A stretch of 64,000 bases of DNA from Spirochaetota bacterium (GCA_965205605.1 CBDBHE010000007.1:288001-352000); one strand, 5' to 3'; numbered from the stretch's first letter, positions 16,771 to 38,263 are shown. Notes: generated by a model from the letters alone, not told the origin. Program-made: numbers and translations.

Positions 16771-17031
16771 AATATCAAGCAAAATAAGTCTCTGTTTATG
16801 ATTAGACGTCAAGCATATCAAAAAAAATTAAAATCTTGCTTAAAGAAGAAATGCCAAGCAAAAAGAGTCTTTGTTTAAAAAAAAAAACACATAAAAAAAA
16901 ACATAAAATAATAAAACAAAGAGTATTTCTATTTATGATTAGACGTCAAGCACATTTTTTTTTTATATTCTTGACACTCTTTTTTAAACAGAGATTTTCT
17001 TTGCTTTATTATTTCTTCTTTAATTAAGCAC
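16771..17031. repeat. Cluster of 4 copies of the island-specific intergenic motif (left boundary)
   Basis: tttatgattagacgtcaagca twice; cttgcttaaagaagaaatgccaagca; one inverted copy at ~16969-17031. Confidence 0.8.
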
Positions 17032-17044
17032 ATAAAAAAAAAGT

Positions 17045-18046
17045 TTAACCCAGTCGAGTGCCAACCCAAGTGCGGAAAAACTTCCAATTGATAGGTCTTC
17101 TCAGGCAGATTTTTTTGTAAAACTCATACTGTTCTCCATCCATTGATTTTCTAAGGGCTTTTTGATAACGAGGAAGAAGAACTTCTAAAGCATCAAAAGT
17201 AGAAACCCCCAAACGACCATCATCAGCAAGCTTGTCTTTTAACAGCCCGTAAGAACAATGATTGATGGCTCGCTGAAGAAACTTAACGGCTTGTTTTTGA
17301 CCCACGTTAACAGCCGTATCAAAGAGCTCCATACGGACTTCAAAAGAAGAGATTTTGTGGCATTTAAGAGGAAGCCAAAAAGTGTTTTTATAAAAATCTT
17401 CAACGCTAGCTTGTAAAGAAAGGTGAGAGCTTAAGTTTTTAGGAAAAGCAGACTTGTTTTTTTTAAGCGTATCAATGGTCTTCCATCCAGACCATTTTGG
17501 GTGAAACTTACGAGAAACCCCTCGGTAAGTTTCACCCCCCCTATCATCTTTATCATGGACATAGCCGCCTTCATGATGGAGTGTTTTTTGTAAAATCGCT
17601 TGGAACGTTTGCTGCTCTCCTGTCGTTAAAATAAGTTGCTTTTCAATCCTTTCTTTGGCCTCAATTTGCTTGACAACCACCTTGCTTAACGACCGTTTTT
17701 CACTCATCTTCCCCAGCTCCCCAATGCCCAAAATAGACCCTAAAACAATCATAATCACCCCCTCCCCTATGCCTTCATAAATGGCTAAATATTCTTTTAA
17801 AATCCCTTGTAAAAAAGAAACCCTTCCCAAAAGAGGCGATAAAATTAAAATTAAAAAAAGACCCACAAAACAAAGAGCCGTTAACTGATACAAAAATGTT
17901 GAAAAATTAAGCTTCTTATGCTCGAGCTCCCCCATCAATCGACTGTGTTCTCTTTTTTCCCTCTCTTCCTTGTCCCCTGAAAAACCCGTTATTAAACTCT
18001 TGCTTTCTTTTAAAATATTCCCCACTCCACTTAAAAGATTGATCAT
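17045..18046 (-). CDS. Holin-like membrane domain fused to a GH108 lysozyme with peptidoglycan-binding domain
   Basis: EGGYVHDKDDRGGETYRGVS (GH108), LFDTAVNVG, LQRAIN...DDGRLG; N-terminal TM segments ending LGSILGIGELGKMSEK. Confidence 0.8.
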   Translation of the reverse strand: MINLLSGVGNILKESKSLITGFSGDKEEREKREHSRLMGELEHKKLNFSTFLYQLTALCFVGLFLILILSPLLGRVSFLQGILKEYLAIYEGIGEGVIMIVLGSILGIGELGKMSEKRSLSKVVVKQIEAKERIEKQLILTTGEQQTFQAILQKTLHHEGGYVHDKDDRGGETYRGVSRKFHPKWSGWKTIDTLKKNKSAFPKNLSSHLSLQASVEDFYKNTFWLPLKCHKISSFEVRMELFDTAVNVGQKQAVKFLQRAINHCSYGLLKDKLADDGRLGVSTFDALEVLLPRYQKALRKSMDGEQYEFYKKICLRRPINWKFFRTWVGTRLG

Positions 18047-18058
18047 TTTTTCTCTCCT

Positions 18059-18202
18059 TTATTTTTTTTTGATACTCTTAACGTTCTTTTTTATTTTTTT
18101 TTGAAACACTTCTTCTGGCATCAGCACCAAAGCCATCAGGGCCACAAAAATAATTAAAGAAGGGCTTAAGTAAACAATTTGTACCATTTCAATTTGGACC
18201 AT
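18059..18202 (-). CDS. Small single-TM protein in the lysis region (47 aa)
   Basis: Translated by hand: MVQIEMVQIVYLSPSLIIFVALMALVLMPEEVFQKKIKKNVKSIKKK*; AAGGA upstream. Confidence 0.45.
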   Translation of the reverse strand: MVQIEMVQIVYLSPSLIIFVALMALVLMPEEVFQKKIKKNVKSIKKK

Positions 18203-18245
18203 TTTATTTTTCCTTTTTTATTTTTCCTTTTTTATTTTTCCTTTT

Positions 18246-18767
18246 TTATTTTTCCTTACAAGTTATCTTTTCTAAGTTGTCTTTTCTAAGTTGCCTTCTC
18301 TGAATTGTTTTTTTTCTTTTTTTAGAGCTACTTGGGGAGTTTTTGGGCTTAAGCTCAAAAGAGATTTTACTTTCTTTTAAACTCAGCAAAAAATGAAACC
18401 CTTCAAACAGCTTGATTGACAAAAAATGAAGTAAAAAACAAAAGGGAGCCATCAGTAAAAAATAAAAATCTCTCCCATCATCCCACGCCTTTTCACTCAT
18501 TTTAAAGGTAATAAACACATACGGGCACACCATCACTGAAAAAGCAACGACTTTACGATGAAGATCAACACTTTCAATGCTTTCAAACGAATCCCTAAAA
18601 ACCCACATCACCATAAATCGAAAGACTTCTGCCATGGCAATCGAAATCAAGATGACCCCTAAAATCATTGAGATGAGACTTTCTTGAGTTAAAAAAGAAA
18701 CGATGTTACAAAAAAACTTTAACAAGTTTTCTTGATTAGAAAATAAAACTTCAATGAACGCCTGCAA
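18246..18767 (-). CDS. Multi-TM membrane protein (possible holin-like lysis accessory)
   Basis: Three hydrophobic segments, basic C-terminus, located between the tail fibre and lysin genes. Confidence 0.45.
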   Translation of the reverse strand: MQAFIEVLFSNQENLLKFFCNIVSFLTQESLISMILGVILISIAMAEVFRFMVMWVFRDSFESIESVDLHRKVVAFSVMVCPYVFITFKMSEKAWDDGRDFYFLLMAPFCFLLHFLSIKLFEGFHFLLSLKESKISFELKPKNSPSSSKKRKKTIQRRQLRKDNLEKITCKEK

Positions 18768-18881
18768 GTTTTTTTTCTTTTAGTTTTTTTTCTTTTAGTT
18801 TTTTTTCTTTTAAAAGGCTAGAAAGGATAAGAAAAGGTTTTTTTTTACCGATGGGTAAAATGGTCTGAGTGAAAGTGGTCA

Positions 18882-20432
18882 TTATCGATATTTAAAAAGG
18901 AAGAGGTCCCAAGTGTAAACTTTAAAAGTAAGTTTTAAGGTAATATCGTTATAGATCGTATTTCTAACGTGGCTTGAAAGCGAACGAACGCGATACTCTT
19001 TGCTGGCTAAATCAAAATAAAAAAAGCCTGCTGAAGCAATGTCATTGGAAAAAAAAATACTTTCACCTTGGAGGTCGGGAATATAACTTTGCGTCTTTGC
19101 AATGGCAGACTTTAAAACAAACTCAGACTTTAAAAGTCGGTTGTGGTCATTGCTTGCTCTGATAAGCGTGATGGGTGAGGAAGTGTTTAAATTAACATTC
19201 TTTAAAGTGTATTCAAAAAGAATGAAGTGCTTTGACGTACTGATGACATCCTGCTGGGCTGATGGGTCTGCAAGCACTGATTGAGAAGAAACAAGGACGT
19301 CATTAATCCGTAAACCGACACATTGATATAGCCCCATCGAGTTTCGAAGATAGTCTCCATTCGAATAATTAATGCGCATTTTAAGATGAGTATTAAGATA
19401 CGTGTACTTTCTACCTTCCGATAAGAGATTGCGATGGATACCTGCTCCGGTGTCATTTGTTTGGTAATCGATGTTGCAATCTTTAACGATAGCCCACTTG
19501 GCTCCAATGGCAACCTGACGCTCACTTGGAGTCACATACCAAGGGGCAATATGAAGATAAATGTTTTCAACGGTCACTTGTTTAAAATCGTAGCCGTCGA
19601 TGACCGTGGGGCCATAACCATGACCATGACGGTGGCCTTCAATTAAAAACTCCCCTTGGCTTTTTCCTTTGAGATGCAAGGTCCATTGGCTCAGATTTTG
19701 GCGTAATGCATCAGACAAAGGTAAAGTCTCACTCTGTGTGCTTAGTCGGTTCATCGTGCCCTCGTACTCTAGCATCAAGTTTCGATGCCCTAAAGCATGC
19801 AATCGGTCAAAATAACCACCACGGACAAAACCCTCAAAAGCTTCTTGAAGGGTAAAATGCCATCCTGCCAGACTAATCACTCCCCACTGGCGACAGTCAT
19901 AAAAAAGAATGTCGTGCCCTATGACTTTTTTAAACAAGTAAAGCGGTCTCTTGTTTTGCCCAATATGAGGGTATTCAAAATTACTTATTTCTTGCCTTAG
20001 CACGCTTATTTCCCCTGATGTATCACAGAGGACGACTTGATATTCGTCTTCTAAGACTAAATCTGTAAACGCGATATCACGGGTGACTTGGATAGGCTTG
20101 CCTTGAATAAGGACTTCCCCTTTTTGGATGGTAAAACTAATCGTCTCTTCACTAGGATAGTAAATATCAATCACTTCCATCCCCTTGATAACGGCATTGT
20201 CTCTTCCTAAAGCCGCTCCCCCAGCATCTAGCCTTTCTTTTATCGTGTCGTACCCTCCCCTAGCACTTTGGACTTCTGCGTCACTCAGTGGGCTGCCTTC
20301 TATCTCTCTCACTCGGTGCTCAAGGTCATTGTGAGCCTCCTTAATCCCTTCAAAGTTTTCATTTAACACATGCGAGCTGGCAAAAGCCTTTCTTTTAATC
20401 TCATACAAATCATTGGCATTAATTTGACTCAT
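18882..20432 (-). CDS. Putative tail fibre / receptor-binding protein
   Basis: N-terminal LNENF...AEVQSARGGYDTIKERLD motif typical of phage fibre anchors; last structural gene. Confidence 0.55.
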   Translation of the reverse strand: MSQINANDLYEIKRKAFASSHVLNENFEGIKEAHNDLEHRVREIEGSPLSDAEVQSARGGYDTIKERLDAGGAALGRDNAVIKGMEVIDIYYPSEETISFTIQKGEVLIQGKPIQVTRDIAFTDLVLEDEYQVVLCDTSGEISVLRQEISNFEYPHIGQNKRPLYLFKKVIGHDILFYDCRQWGVISLAGWHFTLQEAFEGFVRGGYFDRLHALGHRNLMLEYEGTMNRLSTQSETLPLSDALRQNLSQWTLHLKGKSQGEFLIEGHRHGHGYGPTVIDGYDFKQVTVENIYLHIAPWYVTPSERQVAIGAKWAIVKDCNIDYQTNDTGAGIHRNLLSEGRKYTYLNTHLKMRINYSNGDYLRNSMGLYQCVGLRINDVLVSSQSVLADPSAQQDVISTSKHFILFEYTLKNVNLNTSSPITLIRASNDHNRLLKSEFVLKSAIAKTQSYIPDLQGESIFFSNDIASAGFFYFDLASKEYRVRSLSSHVRNTIYNDITLKLTFKVYTWDLFLFKYR

Positions 20433-20555
20433 TTTTTTTTTCTCCTTCCTTTCTTCCTTCCTTAATTAATTAATTAATTATTTTTATTTTTATTATTTTT
20501 ATTATTTTTATTTTCAGATAAGTTTATTTTTATTATTTTTTTAAAAAAAAAAGCT

Positions 20556-22286
20556 TTACAAGTAGGGCGGAAAAGCGGGCGGCTTGCCTACAATCGCTTT
20601 AGTGGCTTGAAGGGCCAGTAAAGAAGGAAGTTCAAAATTGTCTTTTGTCAAAACCCCAATATCTCCCTTTTCGTCCGTATAAAAGTCATAAGCAAATCCA
20701 ATATCATACTCTCGTGCTTCATCATAGCGACTGGCTGTAAAGGCTTTAAAAGTATTAAGACCCAAAATGGTCTTGTTTAAGGCTCCGCTTGCAAACCGAT
20801 GAGAAACTTCGTTTACTTCAAAAATATAAAACAAGTCAATCGTCTTAACAAAAATAAACACTTTACTGCCAAGGGAAAAAAAAGGATACCCATTCCAAAG
20901 GACGAGTTTTTTAATTTGAGACAAGGTTTTGCTTTCATTGACGAGGAGTTTTTTAGCCAAGAAAAAACAAGCCACTTGATTTTGAAATAAAATGTTTTTA
21001 ACATCCAAGCTTTTAGAATAACCTTCTTCAAAAAATTGACTCATATTAAACACGCTAGCCGAAATCGTTTTGTCTGCTTTGTCCCCTTGAGCTCTCATCA
21101 AGTCTCTGCCTCTAATTCGACTTATGACCCCTGGTTTCAAACGTTCAAAGAAAAAATACCTGACTTTGTTTCCCGCTTCATTTAAAGCCGTGAGCGGAAA
21201 ATTAACTTTAAAGCTTCCCCGGCTGATAGTAGGAAAAAACTCTCCCGAGCCTAAATCTAGCTCAAAATAATCATTTTTTTCACCTGCTCTACTGGCAAAC
21301 CTAATGTTTTTTAAGGTTTTTTCTGGTCCAAAATCACTCCCTCGTTTTGAAACATTGACGATTTTAAAACCTCTTTCATCATTTTGTTGAAACTGACTAA
21401 GGCTTTCGATTTCACCTTCATCTAAATTAAGGACCTCAAGGTTTTCATTTGGATTTCGAACCACTAAAACCTCCCCAATCTCTTTTTTAACCACCGAAAT
21501 AAGCTCCAAATCAATCACGGACTTGGCGTATTCAAAGCACTTGTTCAAAGCTTCCAAGCAAGACATTCTTTCAATGTCTTCTAAATCAACCTCCCAGGGC
21601 CATTCTCCCCTCCCCCTTGAGTTTAATTGTTTAACCCTTTCATCCACTTTTTCCTTAGACAAAATCGCCAAATCTGCCCCCACAGACGTATCAAAAAGAA
21701 AGCCCGTGAGATGACTAAGACCCGCACTTTCTAAAATACTTTCTACTCCCCTTGTAAAAGACCATCCATTATCAAAAATAAAGGGAAGCTCATTATCGGC
21801 CAGCCGTCCAAAAATATCTCGAGCTTTGAGGTTGATTCGAGCTGATTTTTTTAAGGTCACTTCACTGATTTCTGCCTGGTCAATGCTAAAAAGATAATGC
21901 TTGTAATAAACCATTCGTCCCCTCAGCCGGCTACCGATATTCACCAAAAGCTTGTCCCCTACTTTAAAATTAAACAACCCATCATCTCCAATAGAATACT
22001 TGCCATCACTCACACTAGAAAGCGTCAAATCCAAAGTCGTGGCATTGCGAATAAAACGCAATTTACCCCTTCTGTTTTTTCCATTGGATTCACTAATTTT
22101 CAAACTTTCCACGTCGTTTAAAACCTCAAAAGTCTCCCCTCCAAAAACAAGCCCCCCCCCTTCGACTTGCTTGGAAACTTTCGCATCAAGAAGGTATTGG
22201 TCACTATTTTGCAAGAGATTTTTTATCTCAAAATCTTGTTCAAAATCAAGATCAATTAAGCTATCTGTTGAAAAAAAATCCATCAA
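20556..22286 (-). CDS. Putative baseplate hub / tail-tip protein
   Basis: Position after tape measure and Dit-like gene; INLKARDIFGRL and FEVNEVSHRF motifs. Confidence 0.5.
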   Translation of the reverse strand: MMDFFSTDSLIDLDFEQDFEIKNLLQNSDQYLLDAKVSKQVEGGGLVFGGETFEVLNDVESLKISESNGKNRRGKLRFIRNATTLDLTLSSVSDGKYSIGDDGLFNFKVGDKLLVNIGSRLRGRMVYYKHYLFSIDQAEISEVTLKKSARINLKARDIFGRLADNELPFIFDNGWSFTRGVESILESAGLSHLTGFLFDTSVGADLAILSKEKVDERVKQLNSRGRGEWPWEVDLEDIERMSCLEALNKCFEYAKSVIDLELISVVKKEIGEVLVVRNPNENLEVLNLDEGEIESLSQFQQNDERGFKIVNVSKRGSDFGPEKTLKNIRFASRAGEKNDYFELDLGSGEFFPTISRGSFKVNFPLTALNEAGNKVRYFFFERLKPGVISRIRGRDLMRAQGDKADKTISASVFNMSQFFEEGYSKSLDVKNILFQNQVACFFLAKKLLVNESKTLSQIKKLVLWNGYPFFSLGSKVFIFVKTIDLFYIFEVNEVSHRFASGALNKTILGLNTFKAFTASRYDEAREYDIGFAYDFYTDEKGDIGVLTKDNFELPSLLALQATKAIVGKPPAFPPYL

Positions 22287-22292
22287 TTCCTC

Positions 22293-22691
22293 TTATAAAA
22301 GCTCCGTTGAACTCATTTCAATCTCAAGCACATGACAAACTTCAGATCTCTTTTCACCAGAAAAAGTAGGGGATAAAAACTGTTCTTCTTCTCCTACATA
22401 AGAAAGCATGACTGACAATTCATTTCTCTTAGGCCGTACAAATGATTTTAAAGGGTCCCCCTCCTCAAGCACAATGGCAATATGACGAGAGCTTTGCAAG
22501 TACGTCTGAAAAGCCTTTATTTGCCCATACACCATCAAAGCCAACAATTTTACTTCCAGTCGCCACCCTTTAATCTGCTTTTTAAGCGAACCACTGAGCG
22601 TTTGAGTCCTTGACGACACTTCTTTAAAATAAATCCTCGGTTCATTATCAATGATTTCAAACAATTCTTCGTTTTCATTTTTAAAAATCAT
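22293..22691 (-). CDS. Putative distal tail protein
   Basis: 132 aa, SRTQTLSGSLKKQIKGWR, directly after the tape measure gene. Confidence 0.45.
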   Translation of the reverse strand: MIFKNENEELFEIIDNEPRIYFKEVSSRTQTLSGSLKKQIKGWRLEVKLLALMVYGQIKAFQTYLQSSRHIAIVLEEGDPLKSFVRPKRNELSVMLSYVGEEEQFLSPTFSGEKRSEVCHVLEIEMSSTELL

Positions 22692-22726
22692 TTCTTCTTA
22701 TCCTTTTTTTAAAGCCCTTTTTTTCA

Positions 22727-23761
22727 TTAAACCGTTTGTCCACTAAGACGCTGGATTTCATTTTGAGTTTCAATAAGGTCGACCGTATCAAAGTAAAAAT
22801 GATTTTCAGTTTGATAATGTTGAGTTTGTTGGTTTTCAGTTTGATGCCGAGAAGAAGAAGGACTGAAACCTAAGGCGAGTTTTTCAAGAATGCTCGTGGG
22901 AATGACCGCAGAAGGAGAAGCAGGAGTAACAAGCTCTGCCCTAGAAAAATCACCGGGAATATCCCCAACAATAGCACTCTTGCCAGCAGCAATCAATCCT
23001 CCTGAAAATAAAGAAGGGGCTTTTTGCCCAAGAATAGCACTCGTTTGGGCCGCTCCCGTCGCCAAAACCGTCGCCGCATTAATCAAGTTTAAAGGAAAAA
23101 TACTCGTTACAAGCGCTTTGGTCGCCGCCAAAGCCGCATTAATGATCGCAAGGCCTACCGATAAGTTTTGATTAAAAAAAAAGCCATCCCTCGCTCGCCT
23201 ATTTTCTGCTTTTTCCAATTTCTTTTGAGTTTCCCCTCGAGCAATTTTCGCTTTCTCCACATCATCTTCTCTCTTTTGACGCCTCGCTGCAATCGCTTCT
23301 TCAGCAAGAACTTTTTCGTCTTCAAGCTCAACCTTCCTTAAAGCTTCCTCTTCATCCAAAATCGCTCTGTCTAAAAACGCCCGTTCAAAAACATCCGCTT
23401 CACTTTTTTTCTCCGCTCGTAACAACTCAAGCCTCTCTTCAATCCGATTTCTCTCAGCTTCTTTTTTTAAAGATTGCTCTTCTTCCCCTTTTCTTTTTCG
23501 CTTTTCTCTTTCTTTCTCATTAAACTCATTAAGCGCCCTCACCGCCGCCTTCACCACCTTACCTTCGGCTTCCAAGTTTTTTCTTAAAGCCTTGATGTCC
23601 CCAAATCCTTTATCAAAATTAGTCTTAAAAAATCGATTTAATTCCCCAAAAATCCCCCCTTCCCTAAACTTAAAAACTTCCTCAGTCGACTTAAGACCCT
23701 CTCTAAAAAGATTTAAAGCCCCCTCAACTTCATTAATTCTCTTAGCCGTATTATCCATCAA
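22727..23761 (-). CDS. Short tail tape-measure-like protein
   Basis: Charged coiled coil, then Ala-rich AIINAALAATKAL...GAAQTSAILGQKAPSLFSGGLI...VGD...AELVTP, a typical tape-measure C-terminus. Confidence 0.7.
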   Translation of the reverse strand: MMDNTAKRINEVEGALNLFREGLKSTEEVFKFREGGIFGELNRFFKTNFDKGFGDIKALRKNLEAEGKVVKAAVRALNEFNEKEREKRKRKGEEEQSLKKEAERNRIEERLELLRAEKKSEADVFERAFLDRAILDEEEALRKVELEDEKVLAEEAIAARRQKREDDVEKAKIARGETQKKLEKAENRRARDGFFFNQNLSVGLAIINAALAATKALVTSIFPLNLINAATVLATGAAQTSAILGQKAPSLFSGGLIAAGKSAIVGDIPGDFSRAELVTPASPSAVIPTSILEKLALGFSPSSSRHQTENQQTQHYQTENHFYFDTVDLIETQNEIQRLSGQTV

Positions 23762-23976
23762 ATTAACCCTTCCCTTCCTTTTTTTTAAACCAGCCTTGTT
23801 GCTTCTTTTCTAAATCATTCATCTCTTCGGTCATCTGATTCTCTTTGATTTTCTTTTCATGAAGATTCTTTTTTTATTCTTTTTTTATTCTTTTGTTATT
23901 TCTGTTGCTTTATTTTATAAAAATCTTTTCTCTCAAGATGATTTTTTTTGAGATTTTTTGAGGATTTCAGCATGGT

Positions 23977-24558
23977 TTATTTGAAGGCGGATTTTTTCTT
24001 TTTCAAGCTCGCGAGCAGCCTGAATCTCAAGAAACGTTTTTGCTCCAGGGTCATCCCCTTCACACCACCCCCAAAATCCATCCTCTCGCCCTCGCCCTCG
24101 CCCTCGCCCTGACTCTGGTAAGGTGAAAGATGACGAATCGAGTCCACAAAAAAAAAAAGTCTCGTCTGATAAAGTAAGATTTTTTTAAATAAATCAAAAA
24201 AACTTTCCACGTTTTCAAACCCCCACTTAAAAAAAGCCCCCTTAAGACCCCTCTCAGCAAAAAAACCTCCCTTCTTTCGAAACGAATACACCAAGTCTAA
24301 CGCCGATAAATATAACCCCTTCTTCGTTAATAAACTCTCCTCAGCAAAGTTCCTCTCCCTAAAAAAAGTCAGTAAACGATCCTTATGCTCAAAAAGTAAA
24401 AAAACATCCAAAGCACTTTTAAGATGAAAACAAACACAGCGTCCCTTTCCTATCTCAACATAAAAAGGTTCGTTCCTCTTCAGCTCAAGAAACTTTAGCG
24501 GTTCATACTCCCAAACAAACTTAGTACCCTTTATCGAACGTTTAAATAAACCCTTCAA
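23977..24558 (-). CDS. Putative tail assembly chaperone
   Basis: Position between tail tube and tape measure genes only. Confidence 0.35.
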   Translation of the reverse strand: MKGLFKRSIKGTKFVWEYEPLKFLELKRNEPFYVEIGKGRCVCFHLKSALDVFLLFEHKDRLLTFFRERNFAEESLLTKKGLYLSALDLVYSFRKKGGFFAERGLKGAFFKWGFENVESFFDLFKKILLYQTRLFFFVDSIRHLSPYQSQGEGEGEGERMDFGGGVKGMTLEQKRFLRFRLLASLKKKKSAFK

Positions 24559-24696
24559 TTCCTTCTCTCCTTCTCTCCTTCTTTTTCAAATCCTTTTCAC
24601 CCTCAGCGATTTATTCTCTTAAATCTCCCTTAAAATCTCCCTTAAAATCTCTTAAGCTTCTTTAACTTTTTTTAAGTTTCTCTTAAACGACTTCGA

Positions 24697-24752
24697 TAAG
24701 TTTCTCTTAATAAGTTTCTCTTAATAAGTTTCTCTTAATAAGTTTCTCTTAA
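24697..24752. repeat. 14-bp tandem repeat TAAGTTTCTCTTAA x4 overlapping a stop codon
   Basis: Copies at 24697, 24711, 24725, 24739. Confidence 0.9.
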
Positions 24753-25627: not shown

Positions 25628-25641
25628 CTTCTGTTCTCCTT

Positions 25642-25733
25642 TTTCTTCTTTCTTCTTTCTTCTTTCTTCTTTCTTCTTTCTTCTTTCTTCTTTCTTCTTT
25701 CTTCTTTCTTCTTTCTTCTTTCTTCTTTCTTCT
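25642..25733. repeat. Heptanucleotide SSR (TTTCTTC) ~13 copies
   Basis: Perfect run immediately upstream of the tail-tube RBS. Confidence 0.9.
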
Positions 25734-25775
25734 TGATTTTTTTACAAAAAAAAAATCCCTGCTTTCTTTTAAAGA

Positions 25776-26105: not shown

Positions 26106-26108
26106 TCC

Positions 26109-26139
<31 letters not shown>

Positions 26140-26157
26140 AATTTTTTTTTTATCTTT

Positions 26158-28568: not shown

Positions 28569-28596
28569 ATCCTAAACCCAAAATCGACTTTGTCAA
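28569..28596 (-). promoter_or_regulatory. Putative promoter upstream of the capsid gene
   Basis: Minus strand TTGACA-N16-TAGGAT, about 235 bp before the start. Confidence 0.4.
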
Positions 28597-29582: not shown

Positions 29583-29700
29583 TGTTTTGACTCCTTCTTT
29601 AATTTTTTTATTTTCTTCTTTTCATATCCTTGACATTTAATCATAAATATAAATACTCTTCCCTTCTTTATTCCTTCTTTAAGCAAGTCTTTATTTTTTT

Positions 29701-31158
29701 TTAACTTAAAATGTTTCGCTTCACTTGCTCGTTTTCTTCTTGATTCCTAAGCAGCCTTTCTTTAATCATCCCACGACCTACCCCTGGATTCTCTCGACCC
29801 ACAAGGTCCACAATCGAAAGCCGATTTTGCTCCAGCAGCATCCCTTCATGAGCATCTTGCTCTCTTTGAGTCAAAAAGCTTTTTAATTCCCCCCACTGAG
29901 TCGTCATCTTAAAAGGTGAAAGCTTTCGCCCCAGTCCCGCTTCTTTAGCAACCGACCCCACTAGCGCCATCAGTGAAAAAAGCTTCTTCTCACTTGACTT
30001 GTATAATGGCACCACTTTCTGCCTAATCTCATCCAACGCAAATCGCTGCAACATCATCGCTTCAGCACTTTGTCTCACTCCTCTACCTCCACTCCCTTCA
30101 CTCCCCAGTATCGCCCCTCCATTATCCGCAATCCGCCTCCTAAGCGTGTTTAGAACCTCCACATATCGACTGAGCTCTTCGGTAAACGTGTACCCATGAA
30201 CCCCAATGCGGCCGTTTTCTCCTCCTCCTCTCGCCACCAACACACTCAAAGCATCTGTCGAAAATTGCCTCAGTTTTTCCTCAATGTCCTCACTTAAGTC
30301 CCCCGTTAAAATCATCTGCCGATACCCTCCCAATCTTAATAACGAATTTAAATGAGTCAAATGAACATTCATCTGTAACGTCCCTTCATACAACTCTTCA
30401 TTAAACCCTCTCTCCCAAAAACTCATCCCCTTCTGCACCCTAAAGGCAACATACGGTATCTCATACCTCTTCAAATCTCCTTCATACCACTTATACGGGT
30501 TTTCTATCGACACCTTCGCTTTCGCTCTCTTAAAGTCAAGTCTCACCCCTTCCTCCAAATTATACACCCGATACTGTCCCACTCCCTCTCGATCAAGACT
30601 GCTCTTCCCATTCGTCCACACAAACACTTTCCGCCCTCCAACCCCTTTAACCCCTCCTTTTAAGCCCACTTCATTCACTAAAAGATTCATCTCAAAAGGA
30701 TTCTCCTCGCTCTCCTCCACCTCAACAGCGTACGAAGGCACCGGAATTAACTCCATCTTCCCCCTCACCACTCCAATCCGAATAAACCCTACCCCAGTAA
30801 TATTCGCATACTGGTCTACCACACTTAACCCATGCTCCACTTCCCCTTCACTCACCATCTCCTTGAATATCCCTTCGTCCCCTTCCATTTTGAAAAAAAA
30901 CTCCCTCACAGGTGACTTCGTGTACAAAACCGTCTTTAAATCAATCATCTTCCTAAATAAATTGTCCCACGATACAATCATCGGTCCCAGTTTCTCATAA
31001 TTCTCTCTCGAAAATTGCCCCCTCACTAACCCTTCCACTTCTCCCTTAAACACTCCCCAGTACATCTCAAACTTCTTTAAATCCCTCTCTCGCCTCATCG
31101 ACCAACTTCTTAACCATCTCTCTTCCTCTCTCTTCTTCTCATTTAATAAAAACTTCAT
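29701..31158 (-). CDS. Phage portal protein
   Basis: 485 aa directly after terminase; NLFRKMIDLKTVLYTKSPVR, IPYVAF, QSAEAM motifs of SPP1-like portals. Confidence 0.75.
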   Translation of the reverse strand: MKFLLNEKKREEERWLRSWSMRRERDLKKFEMYWGVFKGEVEGLVRGQFSRENYEKLGPMIVSWDNLFRKMIDLKTVLYTKSPVREFFFKMEGDEGIFKEMVSEGEVEHGLSVVDQYANITGVGFIRIGVVRGKMELIPVPSYAVEVEESEENPFEMNLLVNEVGLKGGVKGVGGRKVFVWTNGKSSLDREGVGQYRVYNLEEGVRLDFKRAKAKVSIENPYKWYEGDLKRYEIPYVAFRVQKGMSFWERGFNEELYEGTLQMNVHLTHLNSLLRLGGYRQMILTGDLSEDIEEKLRQFSTDALSVLVARGGGENGRIGVHGYTFTEELSRYVEVLNTLRRRIADNGGAILGSEGSGGRGVRQSAEAMMLQRFALDEIRQKVVPLYKSSEKKLFSLMALVGSVAKEAGLGRKLSPFKMTTQWGELKSFLTQREQDAHEGMLLEQNRLSIVDLVGRENPGVGRGMIKERLLRNQEENEQVKRNILS

Positions 31159-31374
31159 CTTCTCTTCTTCTCCTTCTTTAATTTTTTTTCTCTTTTTATG
31201 TTTTTTTTATGTTTTTTTTTAATTTTTTACTCTTTTATGATATACTTGTTCCGATCATATATATTACTGCTTGCTTGGTTATTTCTTCTTTTTTGCTTTT
31301 ATAAAGAGGGAATAGCCAAGCATTTTGTTTTCTTAATTAAAAAATTAAAATAAATCTCTCTTTATCATTAAACT

Positions 31375-33138
31375 TCAAGTCACACATGTCATCGGTTTCT
31401 TCTTCCCAAAATAAACCGCCAAAAAGTAATACAACGCACTGCCCAAATGCGAATGCCCATCATGAACCGGCCGATCGCTCCCATCCGTTTTCCACCCACG
31501 TAGCATCCTCGCACTCAAAGGGCATTGTTTTTCACACACCCTAAGAACAGGTGAATATTCCCTCGCCAAAGATAAGTAATCAATCAATGGCTTCTTAACC
31601 GTTTGAATCTTAATCTCAGGTTCTAGTACCCCCGTCCAACTTAAAGGCCTCTTCGAATACACCGCCCCACTCCTCGCTCGCCCCGCCGGGTCAGCCGCAT
31701 GTCCCCTAAAACAATACCCCTTCCTAAGAACCATCTCTTTACAAAATCCTGCCGTCTTTCCCCTCCCTTGCCACTCGTCAATCAACCGAACTTCAACATT
31801 AAATAAATCCTCCCTATCTCTCACCCCTTCCTCTCTCTTCACCACTTGTAAAAATAAAATAGCCGTGGGATCGTCTACCCCAAAATCCCAACTCGTCCAA
31901 ACTTCCCCCTCTTCCTCTTCTAATAAAAAAGCCTCCCTCACAAACGTCTCTTCACTCACTTCATACACCCTCCTCTCCTCACTATCTTCCCATTCACCCA
32001 GTAAAAATCGACTGCGATTAACTCCCCTTAACCCCTTCTGCGACAACAAGTAATCTTCACTCACGTATAAATTGTCCTTCGTTAAAAAATGAAACGATTG
32101 TATCTCTTCCCTTCCTCCCTTCCCTCTCTCTTCTTCCTCTTCCTCTCCATTATTTCCTTTTCCTTTCCCATTCCCATTTCCATTCCCATTCCCATTCCCA
32201 GTCCCATTCCCAGTCCCTTTAGAAAATGATTTAACAAATGACCCGCCTCCCGTTTTAGCACCAGAAAAAAAAGTCTTCTTTTCAATGAAGTACTCCCTTA
32301 CCCAATGCTCCCTGCCTTTCGGATTGCAATCACACACCAGTTTCGAAACTCGCTCTTGCATCAAGTCACGTCCCCCATGAAGCCGAGTAAGCAACTTCTC
32401 AAAATCTAAAAAATCAATGTCCGTAATCTCTCCAATAAAAATATCCGCCCATTCGCTTCCTAGCACCGCATCACGGTGGCGAGAGTTTTCAATCCCTCCC
32501 ATCTCAATCACCGAACCATTCCTAAACACAATCTGCCTTTTCGCTTTCTCTTCTCTCCACTCTCCCCCTTCACCCCCCAACATCCGTTTTAAAACCCCAA
32601 GCAACGTCTGCTCATATACCGTCTTCATCACACTCGTCACCGTCTTCCTCACCACTAGCCTCCTCGTCTGCGGCATCAAACAACTCCTAGCTACAAAAAA
32701 AACACACAATAAAAAAGTCTTGCCAGCTCGACTAGCCCCATACAATAAAAAACTCTTCCCTTCTCCCCAAAGTCGTCCCCACACTTCCTTTTGACGCTCG
32801 CTTAAATCTACCATCCGATATTTTAAAATCTCTCTCCCATTACCTCTCTCAAAACCTCTCCCATTACCTCTCTCAAAACTTCGTCCCTCTCCCAAACTTC
32901 CTTCCTCCCCTCTTTCTCTTTCTCTTTCTCTTTCTCTTTCTCTTTCTCTTTCTTCCTTCCTTCTTTTGCCTTCAAATCGCTCCATCATCTCGACAAGCTT
33001 AATCAGCCCACGAGGGTCCTCTTTACTCTTCTCCATAAACCCTCTCACCATTTGCTCTACCCCTCTTAGTCCCTCTCCCTTTTCCCCAAACAAGTATTCG
33101 CTAATAAACCCTTCTATCTTTTCTAAAATCCTTCTCAT
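31375..33138 (-). CDS. Terminase large subunit with an N-terminal extension
   Basis: Walker A YGASRAGKT, FRNGSVIEMGG, CDCNP, DNLY, RFLLGEW, nuclease WDFGVDDPTA. Confidence 0.9.
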   Translation of the reverse strand: MRRILEKIEGFISEYLFGEKGEGLRGVEQMVRGFMEKSKEDPRGLIKLVEMMERFEGKRRKEERERERERERERERGEEGSLGEGRSFERGNGRGFERGNGREILKYRMVDLSERQKEVWGRLWGEGKSFLLYGASRAGKTFLLCVFFVARSCLMPQTRRLVVRKTVTSVMKTVYEQTLLGVLKRMLGGEGGEWREEKAKRQIVFRNGSVIEMGGIENSRHRDAVLGSEWADIFIGEITDIDFLDFEKLLTRLHGGRDLMQERVSKLVCDCNPKGREHWVREYFIEKKTFFSGAKTGGGSFVKSFSKGTGNGTGNGNGNGNGNGKGKGNNGEEEEEERGKGGREEIQSFHFLTKDNLYVSEDYLLSQKGLRGVNRSRFLLGEWEDSEERRVYEVSEETFVREAFLLEEEEGEVWTSWDFGVDDPTAILFLQVVKREEGVRDREDLFNVEVRLIDEWQGRGKTAGFCKEMVLRKGYCFRGHAADPAGRARSGAVYSKRPLSWTGVLEPEIKIQTVKKPLIDYLSLAREYSPVLRVCEKQCPLSARMLRGWKTDGSDRPVHDGHSHLGSALYYFLAVYFGKKKPMTCVT

Positions 33139-33233
33139 TTCTATTTTTTTCCTCCCCTTGATACTTTTCTTTTAAACAGAGACTTATCTTCTCCTTTTTT
33201 TGTTTCGTTTCTTCTTCTTCTATCCTTCTCTTT

Positions 33234-33350: not shown

Positions 33351-33764
33351 CATCTCTTACAAACAAACTTCATCAAAAACAAACAAACTTCATCAAAAAA
33401 AAAAAAAACTTCATCAAAAAAAAAAAAAACTTCATCAAAAAAAAAAAAAAAGTGTCGAAAATATAAAAATAAACATAAAAAAATAAAAAATATAAAAACA
33501 AAGAATGTTTATCTTTATCATAGAACGTCAAGCACATAAAAAGTTCGTTGCTAAACCTCAAACAAAGAAAATTAAAAACTTGCTTAAAAAAAAAATAAAA
33601 ATTAATCTTTGGTTTAAAAAAAAATAAAAATTTTTTTATCTCTTCTTACGCGCCTTATCATAAACACAGACTTTCTTCGCTTGGTTATTTCTTCTTTAAC
33701 TAAGAACTTAATAAAAAAAAACAAAATTAATTTCTGTTTATCGTTAAATGTCAAGCACATTTTT

Positions 33765-34049
33765 TTATGATATTCTTAACACCTTTTCTTTTCGGTGCCT
33801 CTCTTTTTCCACAAACTCTGGAAATAGCCTATCTACCTTCTCTCTAAGCTCTATCATCTGACAACGAGGACACTTCGCCCCAGCCACAAAGCCTCCCTTA
33901 AAACAAGCCCTCTTATCACAATGACACTTTAACCTCTCTAACATCTCTTCATCTCTCATCGAAATCGCTCGATTGTACACTTCCCTCTCTTCACTCGTGT
34001 ATCCCCATTCTTTCAGCCTCTTTTCCTTTAGCCTTCTCATCAAACTCAT
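33765..34049 (-). CDS. Small Cys-containing (possible Zn-binding) phage protein
   Basis: CHCDKRAC...CPRC; GAGAAGGG RBS. Confidence 0.5.
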   Translation of the reverse strand: MSLMRRLKEKRLKEWGYTSEEREVYNRAISMRDEEMLERLKCHCDKRACFKGGFVAGAKCPRCQMIELREKVDRLFPEFVEKERHRKEKVLRIS

Positions 34050-34314
34050 CCCTTCTCTCCCCTCTCATTTTTTTTTTTTTTTTCCTCAAAACTCTTTTTA
34101 AAATCAAAAAAAAAAAAAAAGTCGTTTTTAGATTACGCCAGTTTCCTCTCCTGTCAATTAATTTTCCCTCCCCTCAATGTGAAGCAGTCACTTTAAAAAC
34201 AATCCACACTCCTCCGTGCTTTTAAAACAGCAGCATTTTTTTTAATTTTTTCTTTTTTTTATGATATCCTTGACATTCGATAATAAATACATAAAAAAAT
34301 TAAAGGAGACTGCT

Positions 34315-34596
34315 ATGAGAGGATTGATTCATTTTTTTAGAGAGCTTGTCGGAGAGATTACAGAGTTGCTAATGGAGATTTTTGGGGAAAGAATGCGCTT
34401 ACTGCTCAGTGAATTGTTAAAAACTTCTTTCATTGCGATTTTACTCATCGCCTCGCTTCAAATCTTAGAAATCCCCTTTTTTAATCAAATCGATGTTTTA
34501 GGGCGGACTTTAAACCTCATTGACCGACTAGGCGACTGGGCAGGGTGGTTGGCTTTATTCACAGCTCTTTACTTTATTTCAAAACAAACCAAATGA
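34315..34596 (+). CDS. Small two-TM membrane protein
   Basis: AAGGAG RBS before ATG at 34315; two hydrophobic segments. Confidence 0.55.
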   Translation: MRGLIHFFRELVGEITELLMEIFGERMRLLLSELLKTSFIAILLIASLQILEIPFFNQIDVLGRTLNLIDRLGDWAGWLALFTALYFISKQTK

Positions 34597-34792
34597 ACTC
34601 CATTTTACAAAAAAAAAAAAGTAAATTATTTTCTTAATTAAAAAAATAAAATTAATCTCTGTTTATCTTAAAAAGTTAAGCATCTCAAAAAAAAAAAAAA
34701 AAAAAAAGTTGACCAACTCTTTTTTGGTTTTACAATTTACTTATTCTTGCCCCTTACAGCAATAAACCACCCAAAGGAGACCATCAAAGCCA

Positions 34793-35662
34793 ATGAAACC
34801 TCTCGTTAACGAGTTTTCTTTAATTTTTAGCCCAAGCCTTTCAAAACACTTGGGACTCAAACAAGCCATTTTCTTGCAACAACTTCATTACTGGATTGTT
34901 AAAAAAATCGAAAAAGACCCCGAAAATCCAAAGTCTTTTTGGGTTTACAACACCGCAAAACAGTGGTGCGAGCAACTGCCTTTTTTGTCTGAAAAATCTT
35001 TCTGGCGACTTATCTCGTCTTTGAAAAAAAAAAACCTTCTGCTTGTCTCAAACCAAAACCGACTTAAGTTTGATAAAACTAATTGGTATTCTCTCCATTA
35101 CCAAAACTTGCATTCTCTTTTTAAATGGCCTCTATCATCGGCCCCTTCATCACAACCAACTGCTTCATCACAATCCCCCAAAAGTCGTTTAAGCTCTAAC
35201 CCTCCTCCTCCATTGTTTCCCACTCCTTTAGTCCAAATTGACCCTTCCCACCTGCCCCCTTTGACCCCCCCTATACCAGAGACTAACCCTAAGACTACTC
35301 ATCCATCTATTTCTTTATCCATTCCTTCCCCATCACCTACTGATTTTTCTTTACCCCCTCAAGAGCCGTCATTAAAAAAACCCTTAGAAGAGAAAAATGT
35401 TTTTTTAAGTAAATCTCAAGTGGTCTTTTTGTTAAAAAAATATTCCAAGACCTTGCTTAGGAAGTTTATTAAAAAATTAAGCTTGTACAAGTGGTCTTCG
35501 GGAAAAAAGTACGCATGTGATTTCGCTGCAATTTTAAACTGGGTGGCCGTGGCCGTCTTGAAAGAAGAAAAAACAGCTTCGCGAAAACCTAGCTCAAGGG
35601 CTTATAAACTCCACCCCAATCAAAGGGCTCTTAAACGCTATTTGGAAATGGAAAAAAATTAA
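34793..35662 (+). CDS. Phage replication initiator / replisome organizer
   Basis: PSLSKHLGLKQAIFLQQLHYW...WVYNT...FDKTNWYS winged-helix N-domain; PIPET linker; KKLSLYK..GKKY..AAILNW C-domain. Confidence 0.8.
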   Translation: MKPLVNEFSLIFSPSLSKHLGLKQAIFLQQLHYWIVKKIEKDPENPKSFWVYNTAKQWCEQLPFLSEKSFWRLISSLKKKNLLLVSNQNRLKFDKTNWYSLHYQNLHSLFKWPLSSAPSSQPTASSQSPKSRLSSNPPPPLFPTPLVQIDPSHLPPLTPPIPETNPKTTHPSISLSIPSPSPTDFSLPPQEPSLKKPLEEKNVFLSKSQVVFLLKKYSKTLLRKFIKKLSLYKWSSGKKYACDFAAILNWVAVAVLKEEKTASRKPSSRAYKLHPNQRALKRYLEMEKN

Positions 35663-35876
35663 ATACTTCATTTAAAAACTACCTTTAAAAAACTCTATTT
35701 AAGAAAAAATAACCAAGGAAAAAGTATTTATATTGATGATTAAACGTTAAGAACATTTTTTTTATGTGCTTAAGTGTTCTACGATTTACACACCCTCTCT
35801 TTGCTTGGCATTTCTTCTTTAACCCCGCATATAAAAAAAAATGTTAAGCACAGGAAAGAATAAAAAAGGAGTCAAA

Positions 35877-36179
35877 ATGGACGTAGAGAAAAAGAAAGTG
35901 TTAAAAATGGTGATGAGTCTTTTTGAGTCAAAGCTCAAGCGATATAATGAAAACACTTTGGAAGTTTGGGTTGAGATGTTAAGGGGTTATGAAGAGAAAA
36001 AACTCAATGACGTATTTTTACAAGTCATTCGTAGTGGGGATGAGTTTCCTTCGGTTGGGAAAATGATTGAAATCATGGAGCACGGGGAGCTTTTAAATGA
36101 AAGCGAGCGTCAAGAAATCTACTACCGGCAAAAACGAAAAGAAGCTTTATTACTTTTAGAGGAGGCAAAGGAGGAATAA
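35877..36179 (+). CDS. Replicative helicase loader/inhibitor-like protein (SPP1 G39P-like)
   Basis: VWVEMLRGY...FPSVGKMI pattern; follows the initiator; RBS before ATG at 35877. Confidence 0.5.
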   Translation: MDVEKKKVLKMVMSLFESKLKRYNENTLEVWVEMLRGYEEKKLNDVFLQVIRSGDEFPSVGKMIEIMEHGELLNESERQEIYYRQKRKEALLLLEEAKEE

Positions 36180-36218
36180 AAAAACAAGAAGAAATAAAAA
36201 AAAACGAGGAGGTAATCC

Positions 36219-36659
36219 GTGAAACATGGTGATAAAAAAGCAAGTGAGTTAAAAGGTTTTAGTGGTCTAAAGGGAGAAGTAAGTGTGTACTTGGAAGGGC
36301 TAAAAAAAAGACTGGGAAGGGAGGAGAAGGACAAAAGTTGTCCGCGATGTCAAGGCAAAATGGTGATGCTAGGAGGGAAGGTGTTTTGTGGGGAGTTTTG
36401 TTTTGAAGAAGAAAAGGAAGCGAAGAAAAAGAAGGACAAAAGAAGGATGAAGCTAACGATGTTTGATGAAAAGATGCAGCAACTTTTTTTGTCTAAAGGG
36501 AGGAAGGTGCCTTCGATTGAGATGGTGAAGATTTGGTGGGAGGTGGTTTGCGAAGAGCAAGAAGAAAGTTTAAGGGGTGGATTTAAAACGTATATGATGA
36601 GTCTTAGGAGTGATTTGCAAGTTTCTGTTTTATTGGATTTTGCTAGGAATAGCCGCTAA
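36219..36659 (+). CDS. Zn-ribbon phage protein
   Basis: CPRC...CGEFC; GAGGAGG RBS. Confidence 0.5.
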   Translation: MKHGDKKASELKGFSGLKGEVSVYLEGLKKRLGREEKDKSCPRCQGKMVMLGGKVFCGEFCFEEEKEAKKKKDKRRMKLTMFDEKMQQLFLSKGRKVPSIEMVKIWWEVVCEEQEESLRGGFKTYMMSLRSDLQVSVLLDFARNSR

Positions 36660-37032
36660 GAAAAGGCTTTATTTTAGAAGGAATAATAAAGCGAAGAGTA
36701 TTTATATTTATGAAAAAAAATATCAAGCGAAGACAATTTTTGTTTGTCGTTAAATGTCAAGCTTTAACATAAAGTTTAAGAAAAAATAATAAAGCGAAGA
36801 GTATTTATATTTATCCGAAGAGTATTTATATTTATGATCAGGTGTGAAGCCGATCAAAAAAAAAAAAAAAAAAAAAAAGTGAAAAGTGTTAAGAACATAA
36901 AAAAAAAAAATCGTTAAATTTGAAGAACACAGGAAAATAAATAAGATACCGAAGACGTAGAAAAAACAATGGCTTTCATTTAAGAAAGAATAATGAACTC
37001 TATTTAAGAAGATAAAAAAAAGAAAAGAGGTA

Positions 37033-37356
37033 GTGAAAAGTATGGAAAAAATCAAAAATGAAAATAAAGAAACAGGAAGTTTTTTTGGAGAGAAGAAATT
37101 GGAAGTATTACTCAATCGAGTGAGGATGAAGATAAAATACGGCACTGACTTGACGATTGGAGAAGTGGCGGCTTACTTATCGCTGAGTGTGAGCAAAGTG
37201 AGGAACTTACTGGGGCTAGGGAAGGTTTTTTATGAAGGGAGGTGGCTTTTTTCGACTAAGAAATTAAACTTCATTCGGTTAGGACGTTCTATTCGGATAC
37301 CGACGAAATCATTTTTACTGTTTTTAAAAGAGACGGAGAACGAAAAGGATGTTTAA
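37033..37356 (+). CDS. Excisionase-like / MerR-type helix-turn-helix DNA-binding protein
   Basis: LTIGEVAAYLSLSVSKVRNL...IRLGRSIRIP. Confidence 0.75.
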   Translation: MKSMEKIKNENKETGSFFGEKKLEVLLNRVRMKIKYGTDLTIGEVAAYLSLSVSKVRNLLGLGKVFYEGRWLFSTKKLNFIRLGRSIRIPTKSFLLFLKETENEKDV

Positions 37357-37491
37357 AAACTTGCTTAAAGAAGAAATGTGAAGGAAGATTTGACATAAAA
37401 AAAAGAAGCGAAGAGTATTGATATTTATGATTAAACGTGAAGGACAGGAAAAAAGATAACATAAAAGATATCAAGGAGATAATAAAGAAAC

Positions 37492-37520
37492 TTGATAGAA
37501 TGGGAAAGGAATGCTAAGAT
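37492..37520 (+). promoter_or_regulatory. Sigma70-type promoter
   Basis: TTGATA-N17-TAAGAT with TG extended -10. Confidence 0.5.
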
Positions 37521-37619
37521 GATGTTTTTGGTGATTAGAGGGGCTAAAGAAATAAAAAGGCCGTGAGAAAAAAGGGCTTTAAAGGGTTTTAAAGGGTTTT
37601 TAAAAGGAGGTGGTATGGG

Positions 37620-38009
37620 ATGAAACGAACTGAGCTGGAAAGGAAAAAGAGAGACTTAAAAAAAAGAGAGAAGAAAGAGAAGTTGCTGGCAGAAAAGATT
37701 GAGCTTAGGGAATTAGTCCGTGGTGAAGTCCACAGCGAAGATTTTTTTAAGGAAGGGGGTGGAGGAGAAAAAGGTGGTATGAGGAAAGGAGCGGGAGTTT
37801 ATATCAAGACATTAAGTGGATTATTTCGGTATGACGAGGAAGAGATTTACAATTTAAGTGACGAGAGGATTTTAAACGTGCTCATTGAGATAAAGGAGGT
37901 GGTACCGAGAACGAAATGGGACAATGTTTTGAGGAAAGCGATTAGGAGCACGAAGGTAAGGAAAAAAGAGAATGCTTTTATTGAGTTAAAATCTCTTTTG
38001 GAAGATTAA
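37620..38009 (+). CDS. Hypothetical protein
   Basis: AGGAGG RBS, 129-aa ORF; no family recognised. Confidence 0.6.
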   Translation: MKRTELERKKRDLKKREKKEKLLAEKIELRELVRGEVHSEDFFKEGGGGEKGGMRKGAGVYIKTLSGLFRYDEEEIYNLSDERILNVLIEIKEVVPRTKWDNVLRKAIRSTKVRKKENAFIELKSLLED

Positions 38010-38092
38010 AGGCTTGGTTTAAGGCTTGGTTTAAGGCTTGATTTAAGGCTTGATTTAAGGCTTGATTTAAGGCTTGATTTAAGGCTTGATTT
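38009..38092. repeat. 12-bp tandem repeat AAGGCTTGRTTT x7 at a stop codon
   Basis: Copies every 12 bp from 38009. Confidence 0.95.
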
Positions 38093-38263
38093 AAAAACTC
38101 TATTTAAGAAAAAATAACGAAGCGAAAAAAAGTCTTTGTTTTACAAAAAATAATAAAGCAAATTATTTTCTTAATTAAAAAAACAGAATTAATTTTTGTT
38201 TGTCGTTAAATGTCAAGCATATGAAAAAAGAATCATAAGATTTTAATCAAAGGGAAGAAGGCT

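Follow-up and report, generated by a model that had tools for sequence, protein, structure and literature searches.

Among described systems, the one closest to the locus considered here is the gene transfer agent (GTA) of Bartonella (BaGTA) with its run-off replication (ROR) origin. As far as the published accounts drawn on here go, a phage-derived initiator is fixed in the Bartonella chromosome together with head, tail and lysis genes, paralogues of envelope proteins lie nearby, and a GC gradient that follows amplification peaks at the run-off origin, also in core genes (Guy et al., PMC3610622; bioRxiv 10.1101/2024.11.20.624540). A phage initiator fixed beside head, tail and lysis genes, envelope-protein paralogues nearby and a GC gradient over core genes are likewise seen in a stretch of 64,000 nucleotides from a Spirochaetota bacterium (C7:288001-352000 of genome G000, hereafter the window, in which positions are counted unless contig C7 or another genome is named), where a phage-derived block extends from 17045 to 37356, the end of the last phage gene. 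The genome measures 1.69 Mb, is 91% complete and is the sole member of its family among the genomes compared; a genome of the same order carries the label Spirochaetota. Gaps between the genes of this block, and a few gaps beside it, contain a family of degenerate repeats, which had been noticed in an earlier reading of the DNA alone (the sequence-only reading). In the following we describe how these repeats are built, placed and copied within what we call the island, and we consider what they may do.

Our element differs from BaGTA in its spirochaete host, in being one contiguous element of 20 kb in one lineage (the BaGTA modules come from two phages), and in a GC gradient that decays over ~50 kb as opposed to several hundred kilobases; no Q-like antiterminator was recognised in it, and the Bartonella papers, in the parts used here, describe no dispersed intergenic cassette family. 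A spirochaete GTA is already known in VSH-1 (BhGTA) of Brachyspira, which likewise has head, tail and endolysin genes and is kept vertically (PMC9662315). According to that source, packaging by BhGTA shows no regional bias and the terminase gene is located apart from it, whereas our element contains both a terminase and an initiator and leaves a local footprint.

For the repeats themselves, whose basic unit of ~57 bp we call an arm, a counterpart is found in the promoter early stem-loop (PeSL) cassettes of the T4-type phages RB49 and phi1, which number in the dozens, share homology, lie as regulatory units between genes, upstream of them, and recombine among themselves (PMC2839356). PeSLs, as that account presents them, have a consensus sigma-70 promoter, a stem-loop and a Shine-Dalgarno sequence and flank dispensable genes, whereas the arms have no stem-loop and no full promoter (TTG plus TAnnnT at 16 or 17 nt in 0 of 16), occur in both orientations and flank core head genes. 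The stoperators of cluster A phages and the start-associated sequences (SAS) and extended SAS (ESAS) of cluster K resemble the arms in being at least 20 phage-specific intergenic sites absent from the host (PMC9283540, PMC3203893). By these sources, however, stoperators are 13 bp long and near-uniform in orientation, and ESAS adds 17-bp inverted repeats near start codons; the units here measure 57-165 bp, are mosaic and of mixed orientation, and lie 19-355 nt from start codons. There is also a likeness to the Xis-type repressors Apl of phage 186 (PMC7498355) and Gp36 of D29 (PMC12266134), excisionase-fold proteins that are described as repressing promoters through repeated sites. A helix-turn-helix (HTH) protein of our element is only a candidate for such binding, and the Apl sites are, in that description, short direct repeats one helical turn apart, a period that is not found here. 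In other words, taken as an element the island resembles BaGTA with ROR, and its cassettes resemble PeSLs, but in their specific features the arms fit neither PeSLs nor stoperators nor Apl-type operators.

Distribution, anatomy and copying of the arms

The catalogue comprises 25 arms of ~57 bp and three half-arms, placed as follows.

16771..17050: left-end array with arms 16780+, 16859+ (truncated), 16917+ and 17003-, including a two-armed element at 16885-17050
27181..27230, plus: truncated arm, at the capsid gene's 3' end
28590..28760, both strands: full two-armed element of ~165 bp upstream of the capsid gene
29627..29690, minus: full arm ending 45 nt before the start of the scaffold-like gene, sense
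31238..31381, both strands: arm 31273- (degenerate), half-arm 31296+ and arm 31346+, between the portal and terminase genes
33157..33195, minus: truncated arm ending 19 nt before the terminase start
33499..33790, both strands: array of 33499+, half-arm 33578+, 33679- and 33722+, with an inverted end box at 33770-33781
34267..34302, minus: partial arm, not significant alone in leave-one-out
34620..34736, plus: arm 34647+, A-tract and promoter candidate of the initiator gene
35680..35850, both strands: full two-armed element directly behind the initiator gene, with the cumulative GC skew minimum (35825) inside it
36667..36945, plus: densest tandem array (arms 36692, 36728, 36795 and 36816 and more end boxes), upstream of the Xis-like gene
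37358..37520, plus: half-arm 37358 and arm 37409, upstream of the host gene LB_289
38098..38222, plus: arms 38123 (truncated) and 38184 in a gap flanked by two host genes, which in comparison with kin forms an inversion breakpoint

A 36-nt matrix was built from 10 seeds, themselves chosen on the word GTnAAG. Its 16 best matches genome-wide all lie in the island (lowest 22.6), and the best match outside scores 16.4; when each of the 16 arms was left out in turn, 15 outscored all 3,329,928 outside strand-positions, the partial arm at 34267 being the one that failed. Among 56 gaps of at least 80 nt within C7 250-390 kb, nine score 30.8-46.8 (in-sample values), the one with the truncated copy at 27182 reaches 7.9, and none of the 40 flanking host gaps exceeds 5.7. 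The best score in foreign DNA was 16.7 over 120 loci (1.39 Mb) and 16.3 over 40 tiles of the kin genomes G005 and G007, and two exact motif scans of viral contigs gave one single-copy match and none, respectively. The sequence-only reading had counted about 25 copies, with no clear one outside the island, and both statements hold: all 26 positions that it listed carry the family (23 as full or truncated arms, three as the upstream halves at 31300, 33578 and 37358), and, with 15 of 16 arms above every outside position, the motif is not spread through the genome at equal density.

An arm begins with an A-rich half of ~21 nt, often with CTT at its start and AAG at its end, and continues with a 17-nt stretch in which T's alternate. 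A hexamer similar to TATGAT follows, then another 6 nt, and GTnAAG closes the arm as its end box. In its 12-nt form this box was counted 14 times within the island versus nine times in the remaining genome, and the G's of GTnAAG are retained in 14 of 15 copies, a figure that is partly circular because the 10 seeds were picked on this word. Two arms placed head-to-head across an A/T-tract make up the two-armed element of ~165 bp, which is complete at 16885-17050, 28590-28760 and 35680-35850; the other arms are single, tandem or truncated, and many have been truncated or replaced by A-tracts. In several arms with a replaced middle, the end box still stands 34-36 nt from the preceding end box. 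Mean pairwise identity among the 15 significant arms is 67%, autocorrelation of the arms peaks at lags 4, 21, 29 and 34-35, and most of the variable columns are C/T or G/A mixes. The pair of CAAGC words about 34 bp apart that had been given as part of the consensus has its exact spacing, CAAG-30-CAAG, only twice, and the palindrome TTGCTT-N14-AAGCAA, ascribed earlier to some copies, has its exact form once in the island.

Several other identities were considered for the motif. A matrix of the upstream half could not serve as a specificity test, being A-rich and drifting into poly-A on iteration (76 matches in the genome, 16 of them in the island). Folding of 15 arms on both strands gave a z below -2 in one of 30 folds, and no structured RNA of Rfam matched at E up to 1 within 13-42 kb. 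The host has dif-like sites (28-bp XerC/XerD sites) on contig C4, and no island position fits their pattern; a LexA box was rejected, as no LexA match was found in the 91% complete genome, and so were att sites, no att-like repeat being present beyond pieces of the motif itself.

Relative to transcription, 16 of the 25 arms are sense and nine antisense, and a minus arm is present in five of six leftward gaps versus one of five rightward gaps (Fisher p 0.08). The earlier statement that the copies fill the intergenic gaps applies to the head and early modules; none of the six gaps of the tail module (17050-27180) has an arm. Similarly, the copies do mark the left end of the island, but on the right side the phage genes stop at 37356 and copies continue at 37358-37445 and 38098-38222, before host genes. 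Homology between the left-end and capsid-upstream elements (17015-17057 and 28584-28630) continues for a few bases into the last codons of the endolysin gene, which hints at a direction of copying.

Seven of 66 pairs of island gaps share 22-28 identical nucleotides, some in opposite orientation, compared with a maximum of 18 in 3000 pairs taken from 335 host gaps. These identical blocks indicate that the arms were physically copied and are still being patched, since convergent binding sites would not produce them. Shared identity does not depend on distance (r -0.12), and the left and right halves of the arms cluster independently (Mantel r 0.04, p 0.32), in agreement with the earlier remark that arms are mixed between copies. 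We are highly confident that one ancestral arm of ~57 bp, often paired head-to-head into the ~165-bp element, has been copied and patched by short gene conversions. No credible arm-to-arm joint was found in contigs; an apparent joint of 28664 to 33730 proved to be the left-end copy (the comparison covered 21900-41800, and the inserted letters equal 16888-16925).

The captured prophage and its relatives

The open reading frames (ORFs) of the island were annotated against Pfam, PHROGs and NCBIfam; the host genes preceded by arms are given in the last line.

17045..27081, minus: lysis and tail module with GH108 endolysin, probable holin (by hydrophobicity and place), tail proteins, short tape measure (344 aa) and tail tube
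27322..33138, minus: head module with major capsid (phrog_247), scaffold-like ORF, portal and large terminase
33765..36659, both strands: early genes, namely a 94-aa Cys-rich ORF (minus), membrane ORF 34316 (plus), initiator 34793-35662 (plus) and, rightmost, a weak G39P-like ORF 35877 (E 0.029) and zinc-ribbon ORF 36219
37042..37356, plus: excisionase-family winged HTH (HTH_17, TIGR01764), last phage gene and candidate arm binder
37620..40858, plus: host genes for an LB_289 family protein and an 864-aa probable outer-membrane protein (ORF 38264)

Reading frames are open throughout the element. The replication initiator matches phrog_6493 (E 4e-29) and phrog_428 (E 2e-14), the portal ORF is homologous to the viral ORF in portal position of L081, and the large terminase (31375-33138) has intact catalytic motifs. 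No separate small terminase was found in the element; the large terminase has an N-terminal extension of three helices, with 21 residues invariant versus a relative, for which no match to small terminases or other proteins was found and which is possibly a fused small subunit without DNA binding. A small terminase lacking a specific DNA-binding domain, of the type found in the Rhodobacter capsulatus GTA (RcGTA), is a GTA feature according to the source used here (PMC6854486). No integrase or recombinase was found in or near the element, the genome's two tyrosine recombinases both being on contig C6, and no large serine recombinase was found in the genome. A truncated resolvase beside tRNA-Asn at C7 182992-183249 (L133), ~120 kb away, is a relic of another mobile element.

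One relative was found in the protein collection, with identities of 86% in the capsid, 73% in the terminase and 78% in the HTH protein; its ortholog of host LB_289 is 60% identical by BLAST and 69% over the aligned core, a measure by which the HTH protein reaches 71%. Run X1 contains this relative, all 29 variant capsid codons giving the P0002 residue (among the 37 capsid differences listed, of 336 rows). Of these changed codons 20 are synonymous (73 codons; among the differences listed), which points to purifying selection. At capsid third positions (27511-27729), 15 differences have G/C here and A/T in the relative and four are the reverse; the GC gain may accordingly be partly lineage-specific. 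We have high confidence that the element, which lacks integrase and att sites, has the same host gene as its neighbour in a diverged relative and that its capsid is under purifying selection. Two properties that the viriform criteria ask of a GTA are found in it: vertical transmission within the chromosome and no mobility of its own, with two lineages known, and intact, selected genes for head, packaging, tail and lysis.

This capsid query did not find the protein in 40 other genomes, nor relatives of it in viral or JGI metagenome contigs; the terminase aligned to distant phages only (23-34% identity), none with the motif, and in the Atlas neither LB_289 nor the 94-aa ORF had a usable match. 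A complete-looking prophage of the same broad phage group is inserted beside the probable oriC of another genome, G001 (L006-L007, 293-319 kb). It is distantly related, retains an integrase, a DUF5681-like small terminase and (by our own ORF reading) a repressor, and no dispersed repeat family was found in it.

The GC3 tent as a probable footprint of replication

G+C content at third codon positions (GC3) rises from ~0.21 genome-wide to 0.40 at the island. A tent fitted to 541 host genes of C7, with the phage ORFs and the ORF of a 141-bp repeat dropped, peaks at window 29.5 kb and decays over ~50 kb on each side, and its peak lies inside 24.5-39.5 kb in 25 of 25 bootstraps. GC3 is 0.339 near the island and 0.231 on the mirror replichore (p 1e-18), and the tent is therefore not an effect of distance from oriC. 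Counted in bins of 20 kb, tandem repeats reach 28 and 23 at the island, against 15 in the preceding bin and 0-11 in all others; the dropped ORF (42058-44499) holds 12.7 perfect copies of its 141-bp repeat and is open in more than one frame. Two marks of a Bartonella-type run-off locus are thus observed, a phage initiator fixed in the chromosome and a GC3 gradient over core genes that peaks there. This scar in the host genes suggests that the remnant repeatedly copies and exchanges its neighbourhood, as the Bartonella GTA does.

The fourfold-site skew of plus-strand genes flips at ~35.8 kb (18 G/38 C versus 54 G/10 C, p 4e-9) and not at the transcription switch, which is 1.6 kb away; the flip falls inside the two-armed element that comes after the initiator, and 35680-35850 is our candidate for the run-off origin region. 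Local GC skews across C7 ~240-400 kb are strong and of either sign, a pattern suggestive of many small inversions. At 33233-33450, 8.5 copies of an AT-rich 13-mer are followed by four copies of a 21-bp repeat, the 21-bp core of which occurs twice inside the initiator gene; the layout is origin-like, and we set it aside because it is indistinguishable from the many slippage repeats. In contigs of three runs the island has a depth of 4.2-6.7 and the right flank 5.5-6.2, contig depth being no measure of copy number.

Three kin genomes, G005, G007 and G001, were tiled as GC3 controls, and it should be mentioned that three genomes are not a statistic. GC3 is flat over 20 tiles of G005 (89% complete), in which three phage families had no match. 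At two places in G007, GC3 and tandem repeats peak over a terminase-bearing prophage that has replication genes and is unrelated to ours (39 tiles in all), and G001 is not a clean tent control, its prophage lying beside the probable oriC. In G007, a lambda-like head cluster sits at the apex of one tent (L189 and L154, ~1794-1813 kb and 1-20 kb), where a 1252-aa repeat-inflated ORF matches both small and large terminase families and adjoins an expanded array of lipoprotein-like paralogues; the second tent (L166 and L179, 1080-1142 kb) lies over phage replication genes, a repressor and a Mu-like contractile tail, together with a tandem array of short coiled-coil paralogues. Our own island has three lipoprotein-like paralogues with MORN-like repeats at its left edge (13363-16680), and more of these are found at C7 691-693 kb.

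What the arms may do

The reading that we prefer, with slightly less than even confidence, takes the arms as operator/promoter cassettes that have been homogenised within a GTA-like element replicating by run-off; the Xis-like protein of this element would perhaps bind them. A long-resident prophage without an integrase would have been kept by the spirochaete as such an element, with the repeats as control cassettes, and copies of the ancestral arm would almost certainly have reached all gaps in the head and early modules as well as the left end and two host gaps next to the element. Upon induction, the initiator would very probably fire in place near 35.7 kb, sending forks both ways into the chromosome, and, at the same strength and jointly with this step, extra replication and recombination would leave the symmetric peak of GC3 and tandem repeats and supply the copying. 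Somewhat better than even is the proposal that the arms form arrays of binding sites which adjoin or cover sigma-70 promoters, and through which one element-encoded factor would gate capsid, initiator, its own gene and the adjoining host envelope genes. More tentatively, that factor may be the Xis-like protein, conserved though no integrase remains for it to direct. Particles that transfer host DNA are, on balance, mildly favoured. Regulatory cassettes are preferred because the placement is selective, because the densest array precedes the HTH gene, and because this gene has stayed conserved with no integrase left for it to serve.

The peak form of host promoters is TTGAC-17-TAnnAT, and five candidates of this type abut or overlap an arm, usually through an A-tract.

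28596 to 28569, minus: TTGACA-16-TAGGAT, capsid candidate, adjoining the two-armed element through the A-tract
after arm 34647+ and its A-tract: TTGACC-16-TACAAT, initiator candidate
at the array 36667..36945: TTGAAG-16-TAAGAT, candidate of the HTH (Xis-like) gene
at 37358..37520: TTGATA-17-TAAGAT, LB_289 candidate
overlapping the first arm of the left-end array: TTGCTT-16-TATAAT, candidate of the left host gene (15517-16680)

A number of observations weigh against the preferred reading. Sigma-70-like sites in 26-39 kb are not enriched (26 versus 20.5 +/- 5.0 in shuffles), so that the five adjoining promoters may be partly chance and are suggestive only. Read forward, the arms have TAnnnT in 11 of 16 cases with no conserved -35, and the A at -11 is lost in three of 15; a periodicity of 10-11 bp, which directionality factors of the Apl type require, is absent from the arms (z 0.1 and -0.3); and the 57-bp unit far exceeds the size of an operator, with nine of 25 arms antisense. 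The model of the HTH protein matches the Pukovnik Xis fold at a probability of 0.98, its weak points being an E of 0.1 and a pLDDT (predicted local distance difference test) of 65. As for replication and transfer, the positive skew right of 35.8 kb is secure to 38.0 kb and gives way beyond to a mosaic that inversions can explain, while the G007 prophages look decayed, so that a tent marks activity in place and not necessarily a useful GTA. Lastly, the capsid, HTH and LB_289 genes of the relative were assigned to one contig of 64,494 nt from equal size only.

Could the arms be neutral by-products, an ancestral promoter region scattered by template switching or gene conversion in a hotspot and surviving where harmless? 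We consider this unlikely, but it would agree with a region full of fresh tandem duplications, with mosaic copies that share identical blocks regardless of distance, with variable columns that are mostly C/T or G/A, and with the many truncated or A-tract-replaced arms. It agrees poorly with the absence of arms from the tail gaps and the 40 flanking gaps of the same hotspot, given their presence 10 kb away at the left end, and with end boxes that keep their G's (subject to the circularity mentioned above) and their spacing despite replaced middles. Less probable still is that the two-armed element is an origin or titration site of the initiator, or a packaging start whose two orientations send headful series into both flanks. 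A full element does lie directly behind the initiator, where the skew flips, no clear array of iterons was seen in the initiator gene, the terminase has no separate small subunit and carries a conserved N-terminal extension, and two orientations would fit a symmetric tent; against these stand the copies before host genes and most head genes, a mean identity that is low for iterons, and the fact that no tie of the extension to small terminases was found.

The sequence-only reading had proposed repeated operator or silencing sites with stoperators as their analogue, antisense promoters, or recombination sites; in general terms, repeated protein-binding or regulatory sites are still the best reading. 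Stoperators or antisense sigma-70 promoters that silence the head genes are very improbable. The intergenic placement resembles that of the cluster A sites, as far as they are described in PMC9283540, and the reverse strand reads TTGACA or TTGACG in 10 of 16 arms, two of them with TACTCT at 18 nt. When the arms are read from TTG, however, TAnnnT is found in none of 16 at spacers of 16 and 17 (the host spacing), in two at 18 and in two at 19, and within the box conservation is lowest at the G of TTG (10/15); the units are of ~57 and not 13 bp, their mixed orientation is only loosely tied to transcription (16/9), and no CI-like or other stoperator-type repressor was found among the island ORFs. 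Recombination is touched by a further proposal, that the arms, like PeSLs, chiefly provide the homology through which inversions and deletions would reorder modules and bring in host genes, and this too we regard as improbable. LB_289 (ORF 37620) and the 864-aa gene each occur in eight of 10 class genomes; in kin, LB_289 directly precedes dapE in six of seven, and the 864-aa outer-membrane gene follows that of the CCA-adding enzyme in both genomes whose upstream side was inspected. This gene order implies an inversion, in our genome, of a block with the 864-aa gene and dapE; one of its breakpoints falls within 38010-38263, the gap that holds arms 38123 and 38184, and arms in both orientations would suit such events. 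On the other hand, the other candidate breakpoint (gap 44499) has no arm (score -1.7), the phage gene order is conventional, the arms form no stem-loop, and no recombinase gene lies in or near the island.

Returning to the preferred cassettes, the fullest version of the proposal is an independently domesticated spirochaete run-off-replication GTA, derived from a single prophage, whose self-homogenising two-armed cassettes would serve as control sites or as bidirectional origin/packaging sites and, by spreading, would have placed nearby host envelope genes under control of the element. Taken with all its parts, we put it forward as doubtful. In our literature search we found no paper on spirochaete run-off replication with a GTA and none on GC tents at prophages. 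What the sequence-only reading had missed is this wider setting, in which a domesticated element occupies the top of a GC3 tent on the scale of the chromosome. The main barrier in the field, according to the account used here, is that there is no method to recognise new GTAs in genomes (PMC6854486). A GC3 tent is cheap to compute (it was seen once here and twice in G007, over unrelated prophages) and would make GTA recognition testable across assembled genomes; if the proposal is true, tents of GC3 and tandem repeats would be a sequence-only marker for such elements in uncultured bacteria. The cassette family offers a handle on how a captured prophage is rewired after the loss of its integrase and repressor, and, if the element is kept, a spirochaete with a small genome could preferentially recombine one region of its chromosome.

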